From an uncultured Candidatus Saccharibacteria bacterium (GTDB taxonomy: Bacteria > Patescibacteriota > Minisyncoccia > UBA6257 > UBA11618): a stretch of 64,000 bases of DNA. The notes below the pieces were generated by a model. It had not been told where the DNA came from. It worked only from the letters and a program-made list of their open reading frames with translations, and ran no database searches. Positions 400 through 47,138 of the stretch are shown here, piece by piece. The DNA lies in the NCBI GenBank assembly GCA_964363475.1, contig CAYIII010000001.1:2170-66169 (forward strand). Reading direction: 5' to 3'. Within the stretch, counting starts at the first letter, position 1. Each line of letters opens with the position of its first letter. The position numbers were made by a program, and so were the translations under genes.

Positions 400-625
400 A
401 CAAACCCCACCTTACATCCTTCATCACTTCACAAACAAAATATCAATTACCAATTTTCAATTTACAATCAATTTTCAATTATCAATTTTCAATAAAATCC
501 CAAATCCCAATGACCAATGTCCAACAAAATCCCAAAATCTCAAATCCCAATAACCAATTATCAATTGCCAATTTACAATCAATTTTCAATTACCAATTAT
601 CAATTATTGATAATTAGGTCTTTTG
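400..625. repeat. Satellite-like low-complexity region of degenerate 6-9 nt units (CAATTTT, CCAATTA, AAATCCCAA), containing about four copies of the AAATCCCAA motif
   Basis: Direct reading. The motif CAAATCCCAATGACCAA here matches the 14-nt units inserted in folD (1028-1058) and resembles the 17302-17411 segment. Confidence 0.6.
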
Positions 626-2989: not shown

Positions 2990-4312
2990 GTGGAGTTGCT
3001 TAACTGGCGAAATCTGTTAATTGTCTTTATTCTTTGGGGACTGATATTTTCAGGGGGACTGTTTTGGCAGGAGAAACTTTCCGAACAAACCAATCAAAGA
3101 TACAAGATAGCTAGAAAAACAATCGAACTTCCGCCCGTTAAAGAATTTACATTTGATAAGCCGACCGCGGAAGAACAAAAAAAGATTGAGGTTGAAGAAG
3201 AAAATTTCAAAAAGAACGACGAAGAAGAACTGGTAACCATACCTCTTAAAAGCGCCATCAAAGTTTTTCAGTGCGATAAAAAAAACTGTGGTCTTCTTGG
3301 AAAATTTGACCCGGGCACAGAGTTAAAATTTAATCTGCAATTAATTGACCCAGATTCGAAATGGCTTTCAGTTCCATGGCCCGACCCAAGCGCCGGACCA
3401 AAAACGGGATATATTCAGATTATCGACCTTGAAACAGCCGTTCAAGAGCCACCGATATTACCGCAGGTTATTCTTGATGTTACGGACATTAAACTTGAGC
3501 CGATAAATCCGGTGGATATTAATCCTCAAACGATAGTGGGGATAATGTGCGAATTTTATAATCCTGAAACCAAAGAAACCAAAACGACAAGGGGCTCGGG
3601 GGTCATAGTCACCGATGAGGGACATATATTAACCGCGAGAAGTTTGATAAACCTAAATTATCTGAACGAGGGACTGGAAAATTTTAAAATAGAAAATTGC
3701 CTGGTCGGCTCCATACCGCAGTCAGAGTCACTCCCGTCATTAGAAGCTATTCAGCGACTTAACGCCTTCGCGCGCATTCCTCTTTTGCCCTACATCGCCG
3801 AAGTATTTTACGCGCCCAATGAAATCGGGCTAAGCGAATATGAGAAATCATGGCTTGATTTTTCCATAATACAAATTAACGACCTTAATCCCGACGCTAA
3901 ATTTTTCGGCATCACTAAAATCCCCGATAAATTTCCTTATGCTCCGATGTTAATATCCGACATACCAAAAATTAACGAAATGGTTCTTAGTTTCGGCTTC
4001 CCCAGCGAAGCCACCGTGAGCAATAAAACAGACACAAAAACATTATTTATACAGGGGTTAATAAGCCGCGTTGTCAATTATTGGGCCGGAGACAGCAGAT
4101 ATGACGAGGACCTTTTTATGATAGAAACACGTCCGGACGCGGGAGGCACATCGGGAGGACGTTTTGGCTCTCCTATTTTTTGGAAGGGCTATGTAATAGG
4201 CATTCATACCGTTAAACAAAGAGAATCCCTTCAGGTATTTAACATAAGCGCCAAAGCAATTTTGGCAAACTTATACGATAACGGCATCGGGGTCCTTCTA
4301 GAAGTTTATTAG
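2990..4312 (+). CDS. membrane-anchored trypsin-like (S1/chymotrypsin-fold) serine protease domain protein
   Basis: N-terminal TM segment. C-terminal domain has a His motif (GSGVIVTDEGHILTARS) and a Ser motif (GGTSGGRFGSPIF). Paralog of the 8636..9610 protein. Confidence 0.6.
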   Translation: MELLNWRNLLIVFILWGLIFSGGLFWQEKLSEQTNQRYKIARKTIELPPVKEFTFDKPTAEEQKKIEVEEENFKKNDEEELVTIPLKSAIKVFQCDKKNCGLLGKFDPGTELKFNLQLIDPDSKWLSVPWPDPSAGPKTGYIQIIDLETAVQEPPILPQVILDVTDIKLEPINPVDINPQTIVGIMCEFYNPETKETKTTRGSGVIVTDEGHILTARSLINLNYLNEGLENFKIENCLVGSIPQSESLPSLEAIQRLNAFARIPLLPYIAEVFYAPNEIGLSEYEKSWLDFSIIQINDLNPDAKFFGITKIPDKFPYAPMLISDIPKINEMVLSFGFPSEATVSNKTDTKTLFIQGLISRVVNYWAGDSRYDEDLFMIETRPDAGGTSGGRFGSPIFWKGYVIGIHTVKQRESLQVFNISAKAILANLYDNGIGVLLEVY

Positions 4313-5942: not shown

Positions 5943-7152
5943 TGTGATTTAAAAATTTTGATCCGAGCAAAATACTTGCCGCTAATATTAAAACGGCGCT
6001 TATTATAAATGGAAAAAAAGACCCATATTTTTGCCAAACAAATCCCGCTGTTATATTACCAATAATAGTGGAAAAGCCAATCACGGTATGATAAAGGCCA
6101 AAGGCCTCTCCTCGATTTTCTTTGAAGGATAAATCAGAAACAAATGCCTTCAAAACGCCGTCTGTAATACCGATAAATAAACCGTACAACACAAATAAGG
6201 GCCAAAGATAAGCTGTGTCGGTAACATAGGCAAAACCGATGTTAACTAAGGCAAATAATACAAAAGCCGATACCAATACCGGCACTCGCCCAACTTTATC
6301 AGAAAAACTTCCGGAAGGATAAGCGCTGGAAGCATAAAAAATATTGTAAAACAGATAAAGAACGGGGATTAAAAATATAGCCATCCGCAATTCATTGGCT
6401 TTTAAAATATAAAAAGAATAACTGTAATTTGCCAGACCGAAAAGCGCCGCTATTATTAAAAAAAATTTGAAATCAAAAGAAAATTTACCAAATTGAAAAA
6501 TTTTTTTAATTTCTCTGGAAGAATGCTTGCTTCCATCTTGATGCGGAGAAACTTCTTTAACAAAGAAAAGGAGGGATATGCCGATGACGGCGGGAATAAA
6601 AGACAGTAGAAGTATGAGCCGAATAGCATCTGCGACGGCTTTATTGTCAAAGTTACCAAAAGATTGAAAATAATAAAGTATAAGTATGGCAATAAGAGTA
6701 CCGATAACGGCGCCCAAAGTGTCGCTTGCGCGATGCAGGCCAAAATATTTACCTCGCTCTTCAGGACTCACCGATTCCGCAATTAAAGCGTCTCTGGGAG
6801 AAGTGCGAACGCCCTTGCCAATTCTATCCAAAGAACGAAAAAATAAGATAGACAGAGGACTGGCGGCCAAAGCAAAAAATAATTTAGAAACCGCGCTCAA
6901 ACTGTAACCCAAAAGCGTTAACTCCTTGCGACGGTGAATAACATCCGATAAATATCCTGAAAAATATTTCAATAAAGACGCCAACCCCTCCGCTATCCCC
7001 TCAATAACGCCAATCATTGAAAATGAGGCGCCTAAAACATTTTTTAGAAAAATAGGCAAAATGGGAAAAATCATTTCCGAGCTTATATCGGTAAAAAAAG
7101 ATGTGGCCGACAGCCACCAAACATTGGATTTAAGATTTTTTTTGTTTTCCAT
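5890..7152 (-). CDS. MFS transporter
   Basis: 420 aa, about 12 predicted TM segments, MFS-like loop motifs. Confidence 0.65.
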   Translation of the reverse strand: MENKKNLKSNVWWLSATSFFTDISSEMIFPILPIFLKNVLGASFSMIGVIEGIAEGLASLLKYFSGYLSDVIHRRKELTLLGYSLSAVSKLFFALAASPLSILFFRSLDRIGKGVRTSPRDALIAESVSPEERGKYFGLHRASDTLGAVIGTLIAILILYYFQSFGNFDNKAVADAIRLILLLSFIPAVIGISLLFFVKEVSPHQDGSKHSSREIKKIFQFGKFSFDFKFFLIIAALFGLANYSYSFYILKANELRMAIFLIPVLYLFYNIFYASSAYPSGSFSDKVGRVPVLVSAFVLFALVNIGFAYVTDTAYLWPLFVLYGLFIGITDGVLKAFVSDLSFKENRGEAFGLYHTVIGFSTIIGNITAGFVWQKYGSFFPFIISAVLILAASILLGSKFLNHNGIRTTKSPKDFKAYRS

Positions 7153-7777
7153 AAATATAAAAATAAATGACGCTAGAAATAAATATAATTATTAAGGCAA
7201 TTAAAAAATATTTTTCAAAGGCGGCAATTTGCCAAGCGTATTTTTCATATTCTTTTCCTAAATACCATCCCAAAAGAGATAAACTAGTTACACGAATAAA
7301 GGTGCCGAAAAAGGTAGTAAGTAAAAATTCACGCAAATTTAAACGAATCAATCCGCAAAAAATAGTGACTGTGCTAACAGGCAAAATAGGCACGATTCGT
7401 AAAAATAGTAACGCAAATTCATCAATATGGCCAGAAGTAAATTTTTTATTCAATTTTTCTATTTTCTGCCAATTTAAATTGATATATCTCCCCCATTTTT
7501 CAACAAAAGGTTTGCCCCCCCAGTAAACCAGACGATATAATAAGAAACTTCCTAAAGTTACTCCTAACGCGCCCGGCAATCCTATTTTAAATATGGATGT
7601 CACCACCGCATAAAAACCGCTTGCATAGGGATCAATTAATAAAAAACCGATGGCTATAAAAATTATTGAAGATGGAATAAAAACGACTATTTCTTCAATT
7701 ACGCCCAATAAAAAAACCGCCGCTAAACCATAAGCGGCAACAAAATATCTCATCAACTCTAGATAATCGTTAACCAT
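7130..7777 (-). CDS. DedA/SNARE-associated (TVP38) family membrane protein
   Basis: 215-aa hydrophobic protein with a DedA-like core (GLIRLNLREFLLTTFFGTFIRV). Confidence 0.6.
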   Translation of the reverse strand: MVNDYLELMRYFVAAYGLAAVFLLGVIEEIVVFIPSSIIFIAIGFLLIDPYASGFYAVVTSIFKIGLPGALGVTLGSFLLYRLVYWGGKPFVEKWGRYINLNWQKIEKLNKKFTSGHIDEFALLFLRIVPILPVSTVTIFCGLIRLNLREFLLTTFFGTFIRVTSLSLLGWYLGKEYEKYAWQIAAFEKYFLIALIIIFISSVIYFYIYGKQKKS

Positions 7778-10116: not shown

Positions 10117-10168
10117 CAGTGTTCGACAAGCCCTTCGACGCGGCTCAGGACAAGCTCACTGCAAGCAT

Positions 10169-15681: not shown

Positions 15682-17226
15682 ATGTCAAAAAGAACCGTTG
15701 TATTGATTGTGCTTGATGGCTGGGGAATCGGCTATGATAATTTTACCAATCCGATTTATATCGCCAATCTTGAGAACATAAACCACATAAAAAGCAATTA
15801 TTTAACCGGATCGCTTCAGGCGTCGGGAATTGCAGTTGGTCTTCCGTGGGGAGAAGAGGGAAACAGTGAAACGGGACATTTAACAATTGGGGCGGGCAAG
15901 GTAATTTACCAGCATTTCCCTCGCATTACCTTATCCATTCGCGACGGCAGTTTTTTTCAAAACAAAGTTTTACTGGAAGCTCTGAATCACGCCGTAAAGA
16001 ATCAATCAGCGGTCAATTTAGTGGGAGTTTTAGCCGAAGGAAATATTCATTCGTCATTAGAACATTTACTGACTTTGATTGAGTTTTCCCAAAAAATCGG
16101 GGCTAAGAAAATTAATCTTCATTTATTCAGCGATGACAAAGACAGCGCTCCAAAGTCCATTCTTAAATTGTTGGAAATAATATCAGACAAGCAAGCTAAA
16201 TTAGCCACTCTGTCGGGGAAATATTATGCCATGGACAGAGACCATCACTGGGAAAGAACAAATCAGGCCTATGACGCATTATTAGGAAAAGGAACGCCTG
16301 TTGCGGACATTAAAGAACATATTAATAATCAATACAAAAGGGACTTAACGGATGAATATCTGGAGCCAACTATCGTGGGACCGGAAATCAATTCAATTAA
16401 AGACAATGATTCCGTAATTTTCTTTAATTATAGGGAAGACAGCATCCGCCAAATCGTATCGCCTTTCGCGCTGAAAGATTTTAAGGAATTTCCGATAACG
16501 CCTCTAAAAAATATTTATTTGGCGACTATGACTCAATATTCCGATAAATTTGACGCCAATGTGATGTTTCCGCCGGAAAAAATTGAAAATTCGTTGGGAG
16601 TTGTATTAGCGGAAAATAATAAACTACAACTCCGAATCGCGGAAACGGAAAAATACGCTCATGTAACTTATTTCTTTAATGGCTTGAAAGATGTGCTGTT
16701 AAAAAATGAATATAGAATTTTAGTGCCTTCCAGAAATTTAGCCCGCCACGACGAACACCCCGAAATGATGGCTGAAGAAGTAAGCAATCGCGTAATGCAA
16801 GCCATAGAAGATGGCGACATTGACTTTATATTGGCAAACTTTGCCAATGCCGACATTATTGCCCATACGGGCAACTTTGACGCCACCGTTAAGGCCGTCA
16901 AGGTGATTGACTTGGAAATAGGAAAAATAATTAAAACTGCTTTAGCGCGCGATGGCATCGTTATGATAACTTCCGACCACGGAAACGCGGAACAAATGAT
17001 AAGCCCCTTAACAGGCCTGCCGGAAACCAAACACGACCCTAATCTGGTGCCCGTTTACTTGGTGGGAAAAGAATTCGTAAAAATAAAAAATAAGTCCGAA
17101 ATTTCAAGAATAGAAAATGAAGCGGTGGGAATATTGAGCGACATAGCGCCAACTGTTTTAGAATTACTGAAAATAGCAAAACCTGCGGAAATGAGTGGCG
17201 AAAGTCTTATCGGAAGATTAGAATAA
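15682..17226 (+). CDS. gpmI: 2,3-bisphosphoglycerate-independent phosphoglycerate mutase
   Basis: VVLIVLDGWG start and SDHGNAE metal-binding motif. Confidence 0.88.
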   Translation: MSKRTVVLIVLDGWGIGYDNFTNPIYIANLENINHIKSNYLTGSLQASGIAVGLPWGEEGNSETGHLTIGAGKVIYQHFPRITLSIRDGSFFQNKVLLEALNHAVKNQSAVNLVGVLAEGNIHSSLEHLLTLIEFSQKIGAKKINLHLFSDDKDSAPKSILKLLEIISDKQAKLATLSGKYYAMDRDHHWERTNQAYDALLGKGTPVADIKEHINNQYKRDLTDEYLEPTIVGPEINSIKDNDSVIFFNYREDSIRQIVSPFALKDFKEFPITPLKNIYLATMTQYSDKFDANVMFPPEKIENSLGVVLAENNKLQLRIAETEKYAHVTYFFNGLKDVLLKNEYRILVPSRNLARHDEHPEMMAEEVSNRVMQAIEDGDIDFILANFANADIIAHTGNFDATVKAVKVIDLEIGKIIKTALARDGIVMITSDHGNAEQMISPLTGLPETKHDPNLVPVYLVGKEFVKIKNKSEISRIENEAVGILSDIAPTVLELLKIAKPAEMSGESLIGRLE

Positions 17227-17244
17227 TCAATTTTTAATTATATT

Positions 17245-17468
17245 GGAACTTGGTGCTTGAGATTTTATTAGGTTAATTAGAGTAATTAGAAATTAGAAAT
17301 TAACCTAATTAATCTAATAAAACCCCAAATCTCAATAACCAAATCCCAATAAAATCTTAAAATCACAAATCCCAACATTGGACCTTGGGGTTTGGGGCTT
17401 TGTTGGGATTTGGAACTTGGTGCTTGAGATTTTATTAGGTTAATTAGAGTAATTAGAAATTAGAAATT
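17245..17468. repeat. Complex intergenic repeat. Two identical 57-bp direct repeats (17245-17301, 17412-17468) flank a 110-bp segment rich in CAAATCCCAA / TTGGGATTTGG motifs. Each 57-mer has an internal inverted repeat
   Basis: Direct reading. ggaacttggtgcttgagattttattaggttaattagagtaattagaaattagaaatt occurs twice; 17262-17280 is complementary to 17303-17321; ccccaaa/tttgggg pairing is possible. Confidence 0.7.
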
Positions 17469-17525
17469 TTGTAAGGTGGACATTTATTTGACCAAAACGT
17501 CAAATTACCTTAAAATATCGGTTCA

Positions 17526-18632
17526 ATGAGAAGCGATTTAGAGCAAAAAATTAAAAAAGCTCCGCAAACCCCCGGGGTTTATATTTTTTATAAAAATTTA
17601 AATCCGCTTTATATAGGCAAGGCGTCTAATTTGAAAAACCGGCTTCAGTGTTATTTAAAAATTACTGACATTAAAAATAAAATTCTAAACGAAGAAGCCA
17701 ATAAATTAAAATTAATTAAACTTCGTTCCCCCGTTGAAGCGCTTATAACCGAAGCCGGCTTAATTAAGGCCTTAAAACCGCGATACAATATTTTGTGGCG
17801 CGATGATAAAAATTATTTTTATATCGCTTTTACCAAAGAAAAGTTTGAAAAGATTTTTATTACCCATCAGCCAAATAATTTAGAGGCCATCGGCCCGTTT
17901 ACGGACGGCAAGGCCATTCGTTTGTTTTTAAAAATACTGCGCCGTAAATATCCCTACTGTACTTGCTATAAAACACACCTACGAAGCTGTTTAAACGCCC
18001 AAATAGGAAATTGCCTTGATTATTGCTGTAGAGAAAATGCCGTGCCAGACAATCAATATCTAAAGAACATTAAAATTATTAAACAAATGCTTGCGGGTAA
18101 AAAAATGACCGCCTTAAATAAAATAATTAAACCGTCGGAACTGTGGGCCTTTGAAAATATCTCTGAACATATTCCGTTTTTAGACGCAAACAATGCGGAA
18201 AAAACTTTTCAAAAAATAGAATGCTATGATATATCACATTTTTCAGGAAAAGAAGCCGTGGGCGCTTTCACTGTTTTGGTCAACAAAAACGGCGATTGGG
18301 AAGCGGACAGAAACCAATTTCGTAAATTTAAAATTAAAAATACGAATACCCGCAACGACCCTCAAATGATTTCGGAAATATTAAGCCGGAGGTTAAATCA
18401 TCCCGAATGGCCGTATCCGAATTTAATAATTATTGACGGGGGAATTACTCAATATAATGCCGCCAAAAAAATAGCGGGCAATCTGCCGTTAATCAGCTTC
18501 GCCAAACCGAATAAGAAAATATTTGGAAAAACGGACTTGCCGAGAGAAATCGTGGAAAGAGCAATTGAGCAAACCCACCGCTATGTCCTGAACTTCCACC
18601 GCCACCTTCGCAATGCTAGAATCTATTCGTGA
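17526..18632 (+). CDS. short UvrC-like nuclease with GIY-YIG and EndoV/RNase H-like domains and no C-terminal HhH region
   Basis: GIY-YIG motif (PGVYIFY..LYIGKASNLKNR), Cys-rich middle, and UvrC-like IECYDISHFSGKEAVGAFTV..FRKFKIKN. Only 368 aa. Confidence 0.6.
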   Translation: MRSDLEQKIKKAPQTPGVYIFYKNLNPLYIGKASNLKNRLQCYLKITDIKNKILNEEANKLKLIKLRSPVEALITEAGLIKALKPRYNILWRDDKNYFYIAFTKEKFEKIFITHQPNNLEAIGPFTDGKAIRLFLKILRRKYPYCTCYKTHLRSCLNAQIGNCLDYCCRENAVPDNQYLKNIKIIKQMLAGKKMTALNKIIKPSELWAFENISEHIPFLDANNAEKTFQKIECYDISHFSGKEAVGAFTVLVNKNGDWEADRNQFRKFKIKNTNTRNDPQMISEILSRRLNHPEWPYPNLIIIDGGITQYNAAKKIAGNLPLISFAKPNKKIFGKTDLPREIVERAIEQTHRYVLNFHRHLRNARIYS

Positions 18633-24328: not shown

Positions 24329-27223
24329 TTATTTTCTTATTCCCAGCCAAATTTTTGAGCCGTCTAAGTCAACCTCAATAAAATGCTCAACTTTTTCCGT
24401 TCTCTCAAAAATAATTTCTTCCGCGTTGATATCTTTTCTAAAACCCTTGTTGCTTTCTAAAACGCTTTGCAATTTTTTTGGCAAGTCGGCGTGCAAAATA
24501 ATTTTGTTTTGGGGGGAATATTCGGCATCGCGCCTTAATCCTTGAATCGCTCTCGCCAATTCCCTTACGGCGCCTTCATTTTTCAGTTCTTCGGTAATGT
24601 TAATATCCAGCTCAATCTCGTCATTAATTTTGGAATCAAAAATAATTTCTTTGACATTTATTTCATCGGCTAATATATGTAATAATTCTTCGTTATTTTT
24701 TAATTTTTCATTTTTAATTTTTAATTTCCTCAACGGCTGTCTTATCTTAATCCCCGCTTCCGCTCTTTTGGCCAAAGCCAAACTGGCCAACGTTCTGACA
24801 TCCGACATATCTTCAATTAATTTTTTACTTGCCCCTCGAAGCTTTAGCGAAGTGGGGTCAACCCTTGGCCATTCTTCCAAATGAACGGAAACGCCACCGC
24901 TTAAAGATTTATACAAAGCATCCGCGAAAAACGGGACGAATGGAGCGATTAGTTTGCTGATTTCCAGTAAAACATTTTGTAAGATAGGCAACGCCTCCGC
25001 GCGCTTGCGTGAACGGCGAATGTACCAATGAGACAAGTCGCTTACGAATAACTCTAAAATTTTAGCCGCATACCCTATTTCATATTTGTTAAGATTCTCT
25101 TCAACTTCTAAAATAGTTTCATTTAATCTGGAGAAAATCCACTTATCTAAAATATTACTTAACTGGAAATTAGTCCGCCAACTGGCGGATGGGACTTGGG
25201 GCTCATTTTTTGAATAGGTCTCAAAAAATACATATGAATTATAAAGCAACGAGATAAAACGCCTGAAGGCCTTGCTTAACTCCGCCTCATCAAACTTTTT
25301 GGGCTCTGCCGGAGGATTAACGGTATAGAAATACCACCTGATAACGTCTACTCCGTATTTATCAATCATCTCCCAAGGGTCAACGATATTATTTTTTGAT
25401 TTAGACATTTTCTGTCCATGTTTATCTAAAAGATGGCCAAGTGAAATAACATTTTTGTAAGGGGTGTCTTCATTTAATAAAACGCCAATGGCCAGCAATG
25501 TATAAAACCAGCCGCGAGTTTGGTCAATTGCTTCGCAAATATAATCCGCCGGATAACGGTTCGGATATTCTCCGCTCGCAAACGGCATGCCGCCGGAATC
25601 AAACCAAACATCCGCCACTTCTTTCACTCTTGTCATAGAGCCATTACACTTCGGACAAATTAATTTCACTTCATCAATATAAGGACGATGCAAATCAGCC
25701 GGCGCCTCACCGCCATGCTCTTTAAGTTCGTCTCTGCTGCCAATCACTAATTTTTCATCGCATTTTTCACACTCCCAAATAGGCAATGGCGTGCCCCAAT
25801 AACGCTCGCGAGAAATAGCCCAGTCCTTTACCCCTTGAAGCCACTCCCCGAAACGCCCGCTTTGAAGATGATGGGGAATCCAATTTATTTTCTCGTTGGC
25901 TTTTAACAAATCGCTTCTTAACTTACTCATCTCTATAAACCAAGAAAATCTGGGAAAGTAAATGAGGGCTCTGGAACAGCGCCAGCAAAAAGGATAGTCA
26001 TGTTCAATCGTGGTCTGGTAAAAAAGCAAATTTCTTTTTTGAAGGTCTTCTAATATATCTTTATCCGCTTCTTTAATATATTTGCCCGCGCCGGGCAATC
26101 CGTTTTTCATAATCCCCTGGTCATCAATAGTTACGGGAAAGTCGCTCATTTTGTTTCTCATTAAATTCAAGTCATCCTCGCCAAAAGAGGCAATATGAAT
26201 TAATCCGGTTCCATCTTCCGCGCTGACAAAATCAGCCTTCACCACTTCATGAGGACCGTTATTTTCATACAAGGACTCATATTTTAGGCCAATCATTTTT
26301 TTTCCGGAAAGTTTTTCTATGACCTCTATCTTAGTGTCCGAAGAAAATGGCGGCGCGTTAACAGCCCAAATATATTCGCCATTAATTTCATATTTTGTGT
26401 AAGTTAATTCCGGATTTACGGCAATAGCCAGATTTGCCGGCAAAGTCCACGGAGTGGTGGTCCATATTAATAAGTATTCGTTAACTTGGGATTTGGAACT
26501 TGGGATTTGGAACTTTATATATACTGACGGGTCCTTAACTTTCTTATACGCCCCCGGCTGTCCCAACTCATGGCTTGATAAAGATGTTTGGCAACGAGGG
26601 CACCACGGAACTACTTTATAAAACTTATTTAATAATCCCCTCTCGTCAATCTTTTTAAAAACGCCCCACAATTTTTCCAAATAATCGTTTTCGTAAGTTA
26701 TATACGCATTTTCAAAGTCCAACCAAAAACCGATTCTTTCAGTTAATTTTTCCCATTCATCCTTATATTTCCAGACGGATTCTTTGGCTTTTTTATTAAA
26801 TTCGGCAATGCCAAATTTTTCTATGTCCTGCTTGTTTTTAATTCCTAATTCTTTTTCAACTTCAATTTCCACGGGCAAGCCCTGCGTATCCCAACCGGCG
26901 CGACGGGGCGCATAATAACCTTGCATAGTTTTAAACCGTAAAATAATATCTTTAAAAGCACGGGCTAAGATATGATGAGTGCCGGGACGGCCATTGGCAG
27001 TCGGAGGACCTTCATAAAATATGAATTCTCTTTTCCCTTTTGATTGGCTTAAGGTTTTTGAAAAGATATTATTTTCTCGCCAAAAATCCAAAACTTTTTC
27101 TTCAATTTCTGGAAGATTAAACTGTTTTAAACCACGCAACATAAGTAAAATAATAAGCCAAAAACTGCTTTTTTTCAACGAAGGTTCGTTCATCAACAAC
27201 CATCCTCTATATAGCAACCCCAC
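24329..27223 (-). CDS. ileS: isoleucine--tRNA ligase
   Basis: 964 aa with the HIGH-class motif (PPTANGRPGTHH), KMSKS, and CP1 editing domain. Contains two in-frame repeat insertions (25165-25203 and 26484-26514). Confidence 0.9.
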   Translation of the reverse strand: MGLLYRGWLLMNEPSLKKSSFWLIILLMLRGLKQFNLPEIEEKVLDFWRENNIFSKTLSQSKGKREFIFYEGPPTANGRPGTHHILARAFKDIILRFKTMQGYYAPRRAGWDTQGLPVEIEVEKELGIKNKQDIEKFGIAEFNKKAKESVWKYKDEWEKLTERIGFWLDFENAYITYENDYLEKLWGVFKKIDERGLLNKFYKVVPWCPRCQTSLSSHELGQPGAYKKVKDPSVYIKFQIPSSKSQVNEYLLIWTTTPWTLPANLAIAVNPELTYTKYEINGEYIWAVNAPPFSSDTKIEVIEKLSGKKMIGLKYESLYENNGPHEVVKADFVSAEDGTGLIHIASFGEDDLNLMRNKMSDFPVTIDDQGIMKNGLPGAGKYIKEADKDILEDLQKRNLLFYQTTIEHDYPFCWRCSRALIYFPRFSWFIEMSKLRSDLLKANEKINWIPHHLQSGRFGEWLQGVKDWAISRERYWGTPLPIWECEKCDEKLVIGSRDELKEHGGEAPADLHRPYIDEVKLICPKCNGSMTRVKEVADVWFDSGGMPFASGEYPNRYPADYICEAIDQTRGWFYTLLAIGVLLNEDTPYKNVISLGHLLDKHGQKMSKSKNNIVDPWEMIDKYGVDVIRWYFYTVNPPAEPKKFDEAELSKAFRRFISLLYNSYVFFETYSKNEPQVPSASWRTNFQLSNILDKWIFSRLNETILEVEENLNKYEIGYAAKILELFVSDLSHWYIRRSRKRAEALPILQNVLLEISKLIAPFVPFFADALYKSLSGGVSVHLEEWPRVDPTSLKLRGASKKLIEDMSDVRTLASLALAKRAEAGIKIRQPLRKLKIKNEKLKNNEELLHILADEINVKEIIFDSKINDEIELDINITEELKNEGAVRELARAIQGLRRDAEYSPQNKIILHADLPKKLQSVLESNKGFRKDINAEEIIFERTEKVEHFIEVDLDGSKIWLGIRK
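25165..25203. repeat. Intragenic palindromic repeat element #1 in ileS (GGAAATTAG-TCCGCCAACTGGCGGA-TGGGACTTGG), encoding EPQVPSASWRTNFQLS
   Basis: Direct reading. The near-palindromic core TCCGCCAACTGGCGGA is shared with copies at 40281, 46589 and 36841. Confidence 0.8.
26484..26514. repeat. Intragenic tandem 14-nt repeat (AACTTGGGATTTGG x2) in ileS, encoding KFQIPSSKSQV
   Basis: Direct reading. Same TTGGGATTTGG motif as the folD insertion and the intergenic satellite regions. Confidence 0.7.
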
Positions 27224-27320
27224 CCCATATCCTTCATCAATACCGTCCTCGTTCAGAATAAAACTGAACTCGGATTAAATATTGATTCAGGATACGAGGT
27301 GGGGCTGTATACTAAACAAA

Positions 27321-27540
27321 AACCACCACCCTCTTTCTCGACGAGGCCGTGGAGGCGAATATATAAATTACGAAGCTTGGAGTAAGGCTATAAGCAAAAA
27401 AGCGCTGATAGAATCCCAAGTCCCGATACTAACAGTATCGGGACGGGTTGAGTTCGCTTTTTTGCTATATAGCACACGACAAGCGAGTCGCAATTTATAT
27501 GAGCCGTAACAGGTTGAGGAGAGGAAGGGGGTGGTGGTTT
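27321..27540. repeat. Structured repeat element, copy B. 5' AACCACCACCCTCTTTCTC (27321-27339) pairs with 3' GAGGAAGGGGGTGGTGGTT (27522-27540). Candidate ncRNA or MITE-like structured repeat
   Basis: Shares a 35-nt identical 5' block and a conserved 3' block with copy A (637-936). Internal hairpin cccgatact-aac-agtatcggg. Lies between divergent ileS and the Cas4-like gene. Confidence 0.6.
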
Positions 27541-27611
27541 ATATTGGGGTTGGAGAAAACAAGTGGTCTTTGGTTATAGATAAAAAAATTATTTTTCGTT
27601 AAAATAAAGCA

Positions 27612-36732: not shown

Positions 36733-37636
36733 GCAATAGTCCCGAAACCAACCAAAATATTATCAGGCCGGAACGCAAAGTCCATAAAAAATGGTCAAAT
36801 AAACCAAGTAAAACTAATGCCAGAAGCATTATTTTCAAATTTCCAATTTCCATCCGCCAACTGGCAGGCCAATTTCCAATAAATAAATAAATTAAAAAAA
36901 TAAGAAATAACGAAAAACCAACCAGCCCTATTTCTACCGCAATAGTTAAATATAAATTATGAATGGGACGCTCGCCCATCGCAAAAGTTAAGCCGTGACC
37001 AAACCACGGTTTTTCTTTTATTTTTTCCCAAGCAAATTGATAATCGCTTAAACGGTTCTGTACGGAAAAGTCCTGATAATTAAAATTAACGCGGGGGAAA
37101 ATCGCCCAAGAAAACATCAAGCTCAAAGTTACGAACGTTAAAAAAACAATTAATAATAAGTCCTTATTATAATTAATTAAAAGAAAAAGCGCGCTTGCCA
37201 TTATTCCCACAATCCAGCCGGCCCGAGAAAAAGTCAAAATCAATCCTAGCCAATTTATAAATATCGTCGCAACGAATAAGAATAAAAATTTTTTATTGTA
37301 CAGAAAATAAACGCTTAACAAACTTAAAACCAAAAAAGTGGCTAAAATATTGGGATGAGGAAACAAGCCATAGGCCCTTAATAACCGTCCCCCATCAATA
37401 AAAACCCGGGCCAAGTCCTTATTAAGAGGGCTTAAAAAGGACTCGCCTAAAAAATATAAACCCAAACTTTTATGAGAAACAAACTGAATCAAGCCAAGAA
37501 GAGATTGCAACGCGCCCAAAATCGTCAGACCAATAAATATCCGCCTTATTGATAAAAAATTTTTATTTGCCCTTATTTCCATTGGAAAGGGCCGCTTTTT
37601 TAACCACCCTATCTTCCAAAAACCAAAGAAAAACAA
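36707..37636 (-). CDS. O-antigen ligase-like (Wzy_C) membrane protein
   Basis: Multi-TM protein; contains the in-frame palindromic repeat at 36841-36880 encoding NWPASWRMEIGN. Confidence 0.5.
   Translation of the reverse strand: MFFFGFWKIGWLKKRPFPMEIRANKNFLSIRRIFIGLTILGALQSLLGLIQFVSHKSLGLYFLGESFLSPLNKDLARVFIDGGRLLRAYGLFPHPNILATFLVLSLLSVYFLYNKKFLFLFVATIFINWLGLILTFSRAGWIVGIMASALFLLINYNKDLLLIVFLTFVTLSLMFSWAIFPRVNFNYQDFSVQNRLSDYQFAWEKIKEKPWFGHGLTFAMGERPIHNLYLTIAVEIGLVGFSLFLIFLIYLFIGNWPASWRMEIGNLKIMLLALVLLGLFDHFLWTLRSGLIIFWLVSGLLLTSRVWRK
36841..36880. repeat. Intragenic palindromic repeat element #4, in opposite orientation relative to the host gene compared with copies #1 and #3
   Basis: + strand reads TTCCAATTTCCA-TCCGCCAACTGGCAGG-CCAATTTCCAA, the reverse complement of the GGAAATTGG-core-GGAAATTGG arrangement. 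Confidence 0.8.
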
Positions 37637-40011: not shown

Positions 40012-41111
40012 CGCTCACTGCCCTTTCCGGTAATTGCCACGACATCGCCGGGCCCAGCCAAACTAACAGCTTTTTTAATAGCTTCTTTTCTGTCCAATAT
40101 TTTTTGAGCCCGAGGACAACCCGCGGCTATTTCATTAATAATGTCTTCCAGTTCTTCATTATATGAATCTTCATCCGTCAAGATGATTTCATCGCAATAT
40201 TGCCCGGCAATTTTACCCATTTCCGGACGCTTCCATTTATCTCTCCCCCCACCGGCCGCGCCTAATACACATATTAATTTGGAAATTGGTCCGCCAACTG
40301 GCGGATGGGAATTGGGATTTTTTTCTCTAAGGGCCTCATAAACTTTACGCAAAGAGTCCGGCGTATGAGCATAATCCAAAACCACGGCAAATGGTTCTTT
40401 TTTTAAAAATTCCATTCTTCCGGAAATTCCGGAGAACTCGCCCACGGCTTCTTTAATAATATCGCGCGCAATGCCTCGCGATTCCGCGAAAGCGACGGCG
40501 GCGCCGATATTATATTTATTAAAATCGCCAATTAAATTGGAAAACAAATCGCTTTTTTCATAAAGAATAATTTTTCCTCCTCCAACGGCATCTATGAAAT
40601 CTTTTGAGCTAGCATCGTCTTTATTAATTATAAATAATTTTGAGAATCCACTGCCCGCATACCTAAAAAAATCTAATTTGGCTTTTTTATAATTATCAAA
40701 CGAACCATGGGCTTCAATGTGTTCTGGAGACAAATTAGTAAAAATAACAGCATCCCACTTGATAAAACGGTGGCGACTTTGTGAAACCCCTTGAGAAGTT
40801 ACTTCTATTAGAGCGTAATCACATTTACCGACAACCGCTTTCTTCAAAAATCTTTGCAAGAAAAATCTTCCGGGCATTGTCATGGAGGACTCACCATTAC
40901 GCAAAGAAGAACTTACGGCTACTTTCTTTCCCGCTTTTTCTAAAATAAAAGCCGTAAGCTCTAAAACGGTGGACTTTCCTTTTGTGCCCGTAACACCTAA
41001 AACAAAAATGTTCCTTGAGGGAAAATCGCAGAATAAAGCGGCAAAAAAAGACCATAACCAGTGATAGATAAAAACCAGCCAAGAAAAACGATAAAATATC
41101 TTTCTAATCAT
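39942..41111 (-). CDS. Mur ligase family protein (MurE/MurF-like UDP-N-acetylmuramoyl peptide ligase)
   Basis: P-loop VLGVTGTKGKSTV, Mur ligase middle and C domains. In-frame palindromic repeat at 40281-40320 encoding KNPNSHPPVGGPISKL. Confidence 0.6.
   Translation of the reverse strand: MIRKIFYRFSWLVFIYHWLWSFFAALFCDFPSRNIFVLGVTGTKGKSTVLELTAFILEKAGKKVAVSSSLRNGESSMTMPGRFFLQRFLKKAVVGKCDYALIEVTSQGVSQSRHRFIKWDAVIFTNLSPEHIEAHGSFDNYKKAKLDFFRYAGSGFSKLFIINKDDASSKDFIDAVGGGKIILYEKSDLFSNLIGDFNKYNIGAAVAFAESRGIARDIIKEAVGEFSGISGRMEFLKKEPFAVVLDYAHTPDSLRKVYEALREKNPNSHPPVGGPISKLICVLGAAGGGRDKWKRPEMGKIAGQYCDEIILTDEDSYNEELEDIINEIAAGCPRAQKILDRKEAIKKAVSLAGPGDVVAITGKGSERWIHKKNNQKIPWSDKQVVLSVI
40281..40320. repeat. 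Intragenic palindromic repeat element #2 (GGAAATTGG-TCCGCCAACTGGCGGA-TGGGAATTGGGATTT)
   Basis: Direct reading; shares the core and flanks with #1, #3, #4 and ends in the TTGGGATTT motif. Confidence 0.8.
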
Positions 41112-41689: not shown

Positions 41690-41783
41690 ATAGTGAGCTT
41701 GTCCTGAGCCGCGCCGAAGGGCTTGTCGAACTATTGCTTCCATAATATAGGACTTTATGGCATAATTCCAGCTCATTTCAAAT

Positions 41784-46372: not shown

Positions 46373-47138
46373 AATCAGTTAGAGCGGTTTCGTAGTCCAA
46401 TTTTCCCGATTTAACGGCAATGTCATAATCGGCCATTAATTTTTTATTTTCAGGACTTGTCGTGAAAGCCAAAACATTAAATATCTTAGCCGGGTCTTCT
46501 TCTTTTATTAATGTCTCCAAAATGGGTATTTTGCTTAAAAAATTACCGCGAGATAATTTATTAACTAAATTAAAAAAATCGTACCCTAATTGGAAATTGG
46601 TTCGCCAGTTGGCGGATGGAAATTGGAAATTATACAAAGCCAATTTGTCTAGCTCCGTAACAAGTCCCCAGCAATCCCCCCTATATTGCCTTAATAAATT
46701 ATTTAAAAAATCCAAAGGCAATTTTAGGTCTCTTTTTTCCAATTCTTTTTGCGCAAACTTTTCCCAGTCCTTATTTTGTAAAGTATCAAACTCTTGAAAA
46801 ATAACCGGTTTCTTCAAGAGAAAATCAAATTCCTTATTGGGCTTGTCATCAGAGACCAGCAATAAAATAAGCTCCTTTGTTGATAAGTTCTTCTTGAAAA
46901 TTTCTTTTAATTCCGATTGGAAGGGATTGGCAACTACTGCCATTCTGAAAGAATCAAACAAAGAAACCGCCGACACAAATTCCTTCAAACGAATCAAATC
47001 GTCGCCCTCCTCTAAATCAAACTTATCAACGCTTAAATGAGAATGTTTTAATTGATACTGCTTAACAATCTCCTTCTGCTTATGAAATCTGAAATATGAT
47101 TCCGGGCCGTAGAGAAAAATAATCATTGAATCTGGCAA
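46356..47138 (-). CDS. holA: DNA polymerase III subunit delta-like protein
   Basis: N-terminal IIFLYGPESYF (typical HolA start). Contains the in-frame palindromic repeat at 46589-46630. Confidence 0.55.
   Translation of the reverse strand: MPDSMIIFLYGPESYFRFHKQKEIVKQYQLKHSHLSVDKFDLEEGDDLIRLKEFVSAVSLFDSFRMAVVANPFQSELKEIFKKNLSTKELILLLVSDDKPNKEFDFLLKKPVIFQEFDTLQNKDWEKFAQKELEKRDLKLPLDFLNNLLRQYRGDCWGLVTELDKLALYNFQFPSANWRTNFQLGYDFFNLVNKLSRGNFLSKIPILETLIKEEDPAKIFNVLAFTTSPENKKLMADYDIAVKSGKLDYETALTDFAIML
46589..46630. repeat. Intragenic palindromic repeat element #3 (ATTGGAAATTGG-TTCGCCAGTTGGCGGA-TGGAAATTGGAAATT), encoding NFQFPSANWRTNFQL
   Basis: Direct reading; same frame and peptide as copy #1 in ileS. 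Confidence 0.8.

Follow-up and report, generated by a model that had tools for sequence, protein, structure and literature searches.

Within a 64,000-nt window of contig CAYIII010000001.1 (assembly GCA_964363475.1) from an uncultured Candidatus Saccharibacteria bacterium, the spacer between gpmI and a uvrC-like gene carries one complete member (17298-17468) of a family of two-armed hairpin repeats, preceded by an extra exact copy of its own right arm. The family is assembled from short units of 7 and 9 nt, is dispersed with sharp ends, and occurs both in intergenic spacers and inside 23S rRNA genes; at the junction studied here, the element is absent from relatives and lies upstream of a likely promoter. 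It is probably a selfish, non-autonomous, non-coding hairpin element of Patescibacteria (the candidate phyla radiation, CPR), akin to miniature inverted-repeat transposable elements (MITEs), bacterial interspersed mosaic elements (BIMEs), and the intervening sequences (IVSs) of rRNA, in which one arm has recently been duplicated locally. An earlier note on this DNA, made from the sequence alone, had described the repeat and its capacity to fold; that the region is made of 7- and 9-nt units belonging to a family spread across Patescibacteria had escaped it.

Architecture of the gpmI/uvrC-like spacer

The spacer measures 299 nt and separates two genes on the forward strand: gpmI (15682-17226), encoding a 2,3-bisphosphoglycerate-independent (cofactor-independent) phosphoglycerate mutase (PF01676, PF06415), and a gene (17526-18632) for a short UvrC-like protein with a GIY-YIG domain plus a UvrC RNase H-like domain. 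Within the spacer lies a non-coding, repeat-bearing stretch of 226 nt (17243-17468) that begins and ends with a perfect direct repeat. Its two copies, DR1 (17243-17301) and DR2 (17410-17468), are 100% identical over 59 nt at an offset of 167 nt. The earlier note had rightly seen a perfect repeat present twice, at a length of 57 nt; that 57-mer lies within the 59 nt found here. Within the window, a 28-mer taken from the repeat has exactly two occurrences; in 100 dinucleotide-preserving shuffles it never appeared.

On the forward strand, each 59-mer consists of TTGGnnn heptamers followed by 9- and 7-mers with an AATTAG core. Between the two copies, the left arm (17302-17355, forward strand) presents CTAATT-type units and then CCAA-type heptamers as an imperfect complement of either 59-mer. 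It is followed by a central hairpin (17366-17412, forward strand), in which a perfect 12-bp stem, CAAATCCCAACA / TGTTGGGATTTG, pairs 17366-17377 with 17401-17412 (100% complementary) around a G-rich loop. Read from left to right, the region runs from forward TTGGnnn/AATTAG units (the first 59-mer) through reversed CTAATT/CCAAnnn units and the small perfect hairpin to forward units again (the second 59-mer), and the orientation of its 7-nt TTGGnnn and 9-nt AATTAGnnn units is ++++----+++++. The motif CAAATCCCAA has two plus-strand copies (17340 and 17366) and one minus-strand copy (17403). Autocorrelation of the region peaks at lags 7 (z = 5.6), 8 (z = 4.5), and 9 (z = 3.7), with a further peak at 14, and Tandem Repeats Finder returns periods of 7, 9, and 14 for the region and of 9 and 14 for the left arm. 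Tandem 7-nt units are present, yet they vary in type and are imperfect, and the AATTAG part consists mainly of 9-mers.

A family profile, built from 83 canonical elements drawn from the metagenomic loci described below, was searched against the window with nhmmer. The profile matches 17299-17465 with both arms (E = 1.3e-19), and matches the minus strand there as well because the element is palindromic; a second match, at 17225-17298, covers only the right half of the profile (profile positions 80-180, E = 4.7e-12). No other locus in the window is matched, the next-best and non-significant hits falling on the heptamer arrays at 943-1058 and 542-621. The profile, the fold, and a unit order shared with 77 other loci identify 17298-17468, which has no assigned strand, as one complete canonical element of left arm, central hairpin, and right arm (DR2), and DR1 as an extra exact copy of that right arm.

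Other kinds of feature were sought in the spacer. It holds no open reading frame (ORF) of at least 40 aa, and scans for tRNA and tmRNA and for terminators gave no tRNA, no tmRNA, and no terminator-like site. Rfam, at gathering and E-value thresholds, assigned it to no family, returning only weak, generic microRNA-precursor hairpin matches. A CRISPR array had already been dismissed in the earlier note, and rightly: there are two repeats only, the 108-nt "spacer" between them is complementary to the repeat, and the neighbours are gpmI and the uvrC-like gene.

The repeat length of 59 nt approaches the k-mers typically used in assembly, and the available assemblies all derive from short reads; a single 59-mer might in principle have been wrongly duplicated, or a 167-nt unit mis-counted, by the assembler. 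Such an artefact is highly improbable. ERZ1292623 and ERZ1292643, two further independent assemblies of the groundwater well Hainich H51, carry the identical spacer (~300 nt, 100%), which shows that the arrangement did not arise as a one-off error of assembly. Moreover, each side of the core adjoins a 59-mer, and the core can be placed only if there are two copies or more. The three assemblies, all from one well, do not differ in unit number, and the element was found in no other strain; being based on short reads, they fix the 59-nt repeat at two copies or more, and further copies of the 167-nt unit are possible.

Predicted folding of the spacer

The self-complementarity proposed in the earlier note is borne out. 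The segments 17257-17287 and 17298-17328 are 84% complementary, 17284-17353 and 17399-17468 are 73% complementary over 70 nt, and the perfect 12-nt stem and the three occurrences of CAAATCCCAA add to this. The spacer as a whole has a predicted folding energy of -84 kcal/mol, with z = -5.9 relative to shuffles on the plus strand and z = -6.5 on the minus strand.

The middle arm is predicted to be able to pair with either 59-mer, and the alternative large hairpins anticipated from the sequence were recovered. The predicted optimum comprises two hairpins of ~93 nt (-66.2 kcal/mol); when DR1 is held single-stranded, 17298-17468 forms one long hairpin (-54 to -55 kcal/mol). Since the two-hairpin fold is favoured by ~12 kcal/mol over the single long hairpin, a balanced switch between the two is not predicted.

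A dispersed family of two-armed elements

The family was recovered through a 23-mer, ATTAGGTTAATTAGAGTAATTAG, which contains three AATTAG units and occurs on the forward strand in DR1 (17267-17289) and, as an exact match, in DR2 (17434-17456). Public metagenome contigs from a wide range of sites yielded 106 exact matches to it, where a rough estimate for a collection of that size predicts ~1 by chance. It was found in no viral contig, and BLAST searches of phages and plasmids with the element gave no meaningful matches. The flanks of the matches are non-homologous to the window, yet the same units recur in the same order. Across 77 unique loci, and relative to the 23-mer, CTAATT cores peak between -120 and -50, TTGG cores between -40 and -1, and AATTAG cores between -20 and +40; unit cores end at +40, with nothing beyond.

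The canonical element that emerges is ~150-170 nt long and reads [CTAATT 9/7-mers][CCAA 7-mers], central hairpin or loop, [TTGG 7-mers][AATTAG 9/7-mers]. In the right arm, TTAG cores are spaced by 9 nt in 220 cases and by 7 nt in 24, and a small vocabulary of units (TTAGAATAA, TTAGGTCAA, TTAGGTTAA, TTAGAGCAA, and TTAGAAA) dominates both arms. Folding is a trait of the family: relative to shuffles the median z is -3.0, 66% of the elements fall below -2, and the 23-mer is typically paired over 19 of its 23 nt with the upstream arm in the predicted fold, although the profile and these fold statistics contain the 23-mer by construction. The pairing does not extend to the variable triplets, as illustrated by the AGT unit of the right arm, whose partner is found in only 2 of ~170 left-arm units. 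The arms are therefore better described as independent arrays of a shared core than as inverted duplicates.

With respect to genes, taking ORFs as called mechanically, the right end of the element lies a median of 17.5 nt from the next ORF boundary (68% within 25 nt), and the upstream ORF lies a median of 95.5 nt away; given these short distances, an element usually constitutes the entire spacer. Elements face genes in either orientation, with a gene start next to the right end in 48 cases and a stop in 40, and most of the gene pairs that flank them are co-directional. When translation was begun at the first ATG beyond the array, the predicted protein agreed exactly with the called one in nine of ten cases. 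A promoter role for TAGAAT-like units was considered for the family and rejected, there being no consistent -35 spacing and elements facing genes both ways. The idea of a DNA uptake sequence was likewise set aside, with AATTAG occurring only 39 times and CTAATT only 50 times in the 64 kb.

That the element is a discrete dispersed unit follows from a pair of copies in one 570-kb contig of another organism (loci L060 and L065), which are ~95% identical over ~103 nt, have sharp ends, and sit in unrelated flanks. Host names are known for few of the 23-mer loci; those named are Curtissbacteria and Woesebacteria. A looser, degenerate pattern covering both arm types, applied to a genome collection, found only three foreign loci. 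One is in a Kerfeldbacteria genome, in the spacer that follows the gene for ribosomal protein L5; the others belong to a different Patescibacterium from Hainich and to an Ignavibacterium, where the match may be due to chance. One copy (L009) occupies a spacer of a ribosomal-protein operon. No description of the family was found in the literature on CPR repeats or under the sequence strings themselves, and it seems to be undescribed.

Copies inside 23S rRNA genes

At three loci (L019, L039, and L040), the array lies inside a 23S rRNA gene. In L039 it is inserted after Rfam model position 583 (462-1027 in rRNA sense), which we take to be the helix 25 region. Read in rRNA sense, this insertion opens with a small GC hairpin and CTAATT units and closes with AATTAG units and a GC hairpin; its arms bracket ~400 nt containing a reverse-strand ORF of 79 aa, for which a Pfam scan gave no match. 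By eye, this ORF has its own Shine-Dalgarno-like sequence and terminator. In L040, the same arms occupy the same helix-25-region site around a different reverse-strand ORF, of 68 aa, and a cargo-free heptamer hairpin lies near the 5′ end of the 23S gene; the array elements of this locus are at 7017-7545 and 6105-6275 on the reverse strand. L019 carries a cargo-free element at another 23S site (1519-1650). Short GC hairpins of the CACATCAC...GTGATGTGG type were also noted outside the arms of the 23S rRNA elements.

A survey of CPR rRNA genes reported many short, non-intron, ORF-less insertions at the classical IVS sites cleaved by RNase III, and left them uncharacterised (PMC11270868); it gives neither the unit arrays nor their occurrence outside rRNA. 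The elements found here fit that class.

The junction in relatives and the question of regulation

The pairing of gpmI with the uvrC-like gene is kept in relatives, whereas the content of the spacer is not. In L006 (72% identity, UvrC-like), the two genes are separated by 18 nt. In L118 (69%, gpmI), the junction (3724-4038) holds a gene of 104 aa on the opposite strand, whose product we read as pilin-like at its N-terminus, and in L120 (70%, gpmI) it holds two small opposite-strand genes (2344-2993). The closest genome, represented by L117 and L003 (89% gpmI; 82% UvrC-like), has a small ORF (4612-4920 in L117; Cys-rich, 102 aa), another short repeat, and a GC-rich repeat element in which its contigs break. 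From these comparisons, the junction looks like an insertion-prone, hypervariable slot, a hotspot for gene insertion.

Downstream of the element, a putative sigma-70-like promoter (17488-17516, forward strand) matches the consensus at 10 of 12 positions, with TTGACC and TAAAAT separated by 17 nt, 10 nt before the ATG of the uvrC-like gene; it is a consensus match only. Were this promoter used, the mRNA would start only ~2-5 nt before the ATG, and no Shine-Dalgarno sequence is visible in 17488-17528. The uvrC-like transcript may be leaderless.

These observations bear on a regulatory leader for the uvrC-like gene, which the earlier note had entertained. In a more specific form of the idea, the region would be a cis-acting leader or attenuator whose core pairs with one or the other 59-mer, the choice switching uvrC-like expression. 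The element does lie upstream of that gene and can adopt two mutually exclusive folds (-66.2 versus -54 to -55 kcal/mol). Against this, relatives lack such an element upstream of the uvrC-like gene and the best promoter-like site falls between the element and the ATG, and there is therefore no conserved leader. The family abuts gene starts and stops about equally, Rfam gives no match here, the two-copy layout recurs in none of the 106 family loci, and the energetic preference for two hairpins speaks against a switch. An attenuator appears largely refuted by the comparative data and is very improbable. On the reading of a selfish element, it would exert no control over the uvrC-like gene and would provide, at most, a structured 3′ end for the gpmI transcript.

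Origin of the duplicated arm

DR1 lies directly 5′ of the left arm, which brings a right end up against a left end (junction 17301|17302). Two copies of the 23-mer are found in 0 of 106 other loci, and junctions of AATTAG followed by CTAATT are rare among them; the duplication is therefore specific to the gpmI/uvrC-like locus. Its recency, which the earlier note had proposed, is supported by the perfect identity of the 59-nt copies.

Plain tandem duplication of the 167-nt unit can be dismissed, as it would yield 334 nt of repeat and not 226. Three possible routes are left: deletion after formation of a tandem dimer, a template switch from one unit to another, and a partial head-to-tail dimer. 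On the reading of a selfish element, the duplication would be a recent local event, produced by slippage or a template switch among units or as a partial head-to-tail dimer.

A different origin would be an integration or recombination scar, in which a small circular DNA bearing one 59-mer recombined into a chromosomal 59-mer and left attL/attR-like repeats. Perfect direct repeats do flank a distinct 108-nt core, and the junction is a hotspot at which relatives carry different inserts. However, the 108-nt core together with the right 59-mer is simply a standard family element, no integrase or recombinase adjoins it, and nothing matching it was found in the phage, plasmid, or viral collections. 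A scar of this kind is quite unlikely. The suggestion of a "mobile or integrative scar" in the earlier note was accordingly sound in its mobile half, the core plus DR2 being a full member of a dispersed family, and unsupported in its integrative half, with a core of only 108 nt, no integrase, and no phage or plasmid matches.

Comparison with known repeats

By analogy, the element seems to resemble BIME/repetitive extragenic palindromic (REP) mosaics, MITEs, and 23S rRNA IVSs most closely in its behaviour, and mixed heptamer assemblages in its make-up. With BIMEs and REPs it shares an extragenic, non-coding mosaic of short modules in alternating orientation, the formation of hairpins, local variation in module number, and placement between genes in any orientation. 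It differs in that its units are AT-rich and of 7 and 9 nt within a whole hairpin of 110-170 nt, in place of GC-rich palindromes of 20-40 bp, and in that its copy number per genome is apparently low and the family also resides in rRNA genes; nor is it known to be accompanied by a RAYT (Y1) transposase.

MITEs such as the Correia elements of Neisseria and the Rickettsia palindromic elements (RPEs) are likewise short and non-autonomous, with inverted ends and dispersed copies of sharp boundaries. At 226 nt in total, of which 171 nt are canonical, the non-coding region lies within the usual MITE size of under ~500 bp, and, as with RPEs, related short modules occur in frame inside essential genes of the window genome. 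Its ends, in contrast, are arrays of a repeated core (CTAATT/AATTAG) with unmatched triplets and arms that are 73-84% complementary, where a MITE has a single terminal inverted repeat; neither a target-site duplication nor a parent insertion sequence was found, the latter without a transposase search having been made.

The IVSs of 23S rRNA, which are removed by RNase III and occupy helices 9, 25, and 45, find a parallel in the family members inside 23S rRNA genes, one of them in the helix 25 region, with an extended stem and sometimes a small ORF. The element studied here also folds into one hairpin (17298-17468, -55 kcal/mol). It is, however, intergenic, and cleavage of the family by RNase III is putative. 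A further parallel is offered by the BOX elements of Streptococcus pneumoniae, which are modular (end modules and variable internal modules of 45-60 nt), intergenic, and stable in predicted structure; they have no sequence relation to the present elements, whose units are of 7-9 nt.

Among heptamer repeats, the short tandemly repeated repetitive (STRR) units of cyanobacteria include CCCCA[A/G]T, TTGGTCA, and CAACAGT. TTGGTCA units are present among the arrays of our family. Other heptamers are GGGNATC of Xanthomonas and Nostoc (PMC4692102) and TAACTGA of Beggiatoaceae, Cyanobacteria, and Bacteroidetes (PMC4679880). Like the present elements, heptamer assemblages have 7-nt units of mixed types, lie in intergenic DNA near start and stop codons, form inverted stem-loops, break contigs, are missing from relatives, and show a cross-phylum distribution that is unexplained. 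The family described here differs in its Patescibacteria hosts, in combining 9-nt AATTAG with 7-nt TTGG units, and in a fixed two-armed build of ~150-170 nt that is not plainly tandem.

Selfish element or host function

Taken as selfish DNA, the element would spread by transposition or recombination, and its tolerance would reflect the absence of any function that has to be maintained; its RNA would fold into a long stem, by analogy with the intervening sequences that RNase III removes from 23S rRNA. Several points weigh against this reading. The window of 64 kb contains one single element of the family. No transposase turned up, though no search aimed at transposases was made, and no target-site duplication was found, the flanks of L060 and L065 showing no clear one and their ends being blurred by unit slippage. 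No empty site was found at base resolution. The arms are not true inverted copies, their variable triplets being mismatched, which is unusual for a MITE. All 106 loci were recruited through one exact 23-mer, which biases the picture of the family toward that variant. Finally, the conservation of short cores across deep lineages could itself reflect function, as a protein-binding or RNA-processing site.

The last point leads to the view that the family serves its hosts, either through an AU-rich stem acting as an RNA processing, stabilizing, or insulating signal (an RNase III site or non-canonical terminator), or through AATTAG/TTGG arrays bound by protein. The copy at 17243-17468 would then mark the end of the gpmI transcript or separate two transcription units. 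Consistent with this view, the short cores and the limited set of units persist across Microgenomates and Parcubacteria-type lineages, elements fill spacers exactly to start or stop codons, hairpin folding is family-wide, one copy sits in a ribosomal-protein operon spacer, and copies inside rRNA would require excision. In Beggiatoaceae and Nostoc, moreover, effects on expression have been reported or proposed for heptamer repeats located close to start codons (PMC4679880; bioRxiv 10.1101/2022.06.06.494920). On the other side, close relatives lack the element at the same junction, elements have no preferred orientation relative to genes, the terminator scan was negative, the non-complementary triplets indicate a stem that is not finely maintained, and a single copy is present in 64 kb with dozens of gene junctions. 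A host function for the family is a possibility that we consider rather unlikely, and a selfish element with a recent local arm duplication is the reading we prefer.

Other repeats and modules in the window

Further repeats accompany the element in this genome. At 430-615 (minus strand), a one-armed array of 7-nt units of the CAATTnn and CCCAAAT types extends over 185 nt in one orientation (lag-7 z = 8.9); CAATTnn units of this type also form the insertion near the 5′ end of the 23S rRNA gene of L040. The array directly adjoins a GC-rich element present in two copies (629-939 and 27313-27542), with conserved pairing ends (ACCACCCTCTTTC... / ...GGAAGAGGGTGGT), conserved inner motifs (GACGAGGCCGTGGAGGCGAA and TATATGAGCCGTAACA), and a variable middle. 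Rfam gave no match for it, and for the copy at 629-939 neither a T-box, a hammerhead ribozyme, nor a group II intron domain 5 fits by eye. Contigs of relatives break inside the GC-rich element, 42-73 nt upstream of the uvrC-like gene, and it is therefore probably multi-copy there; it could be a MITE-like repeat or a structured RNA. A GC mini-hairpin, CCTGCCTGCCGG..GGCAGG, occurs both in this element (window ~880-905) and in the AATTAG/TTGG array of an unrelated metagenome contig (L016), which suggests a common pool of small modules.

Several modules lie in frame within genes. Runs of TTGGnnn heptamers, 30 nt each, are found on the forward strand in the FolD gene (TTGGTCATTGGGAT twice, 1029-1058, peptide KNPNDQIPMTK) and in the IleRS gene (TTGGGATTTGGAAC twice, 26486-26515, peptide KFQIPSSKSQ); in a relative at 82-89% identity, this IleRS loop holds another repeat-like insertion, which differs and is longer. 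A 42-nt module (TTGGAAATTGG, the hairpin TCCGCCAACTGGCGGA, and TGGGAATTGG, in that order) occurs at 25163-25204, 36838-36879 (reverse), 40279-40320, and 46590-46631, in frame inside four genes and encoding peptides such as PSASWRTNFQ and SANWRTNFQ. These genes are IleRS and three unannotated ORFs, which we read as an O-antigen-ligase-like membrane protein, a Mur ligase, and a holA-like protein. At the IleRS site, the window segment is 6 aa longer than that of the relative and unrelated to it in sequence. In being carried in frame, the module resembles the Rickettsia palindromic elements. A 40-nt repeat, GTTCGACAAGCCCTTCGACGCGGCTCAGGACAAGCTCACT, is 98% complementary between 10121-10160 and 41692-41731, one copy lying just after tRNA-Pro and the other within an ORF or at its edge. 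In L117, gpmI is followed by a similar GACGCCGCTCAGGATAAA motif.

Implications

The gpmI/uvrC-like locus is in itself ordinary, a dispensable spacer element with a fresh duplication, and the family matters more. One unit vocabulary is used across distant lineages of Patescibacteria, where it makes up whole spacers and flanks insertions in 23S rRNA genes on both sides, and its TTGG heptamers appear in frame in essential genes. In practical terms, short-read contigs break at the arrays, which can also lead gene callers astray at the ends of genes.

A bolder proposal, which we advance tentatively and regard as unlikely, would join these observations. The AATTAG-9-mer/TTGG-7-mer elements would constitute an undescribed, Patescibacteria-wide mobile class whose arms hold arrays of sites bound by a dedicated protein and which can carry small cargo genes; they would invade spacers and rRNA helices, with heptamer modules invading protein loops, and would be harmless as RNA through pairing and excision of the arms. 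On this view, a head-to-tail or circle-junction transposition intermediate would have left its trace in the junction at 17301|17302. If true, such a class would link the unexplained short insertions of CPR rRNA with intergenic repeats and protein insertions, and, as one mobile system, would provide a concrete source for three CPR oddities: rRNA insertions, protein insertions, and broken assemblies.

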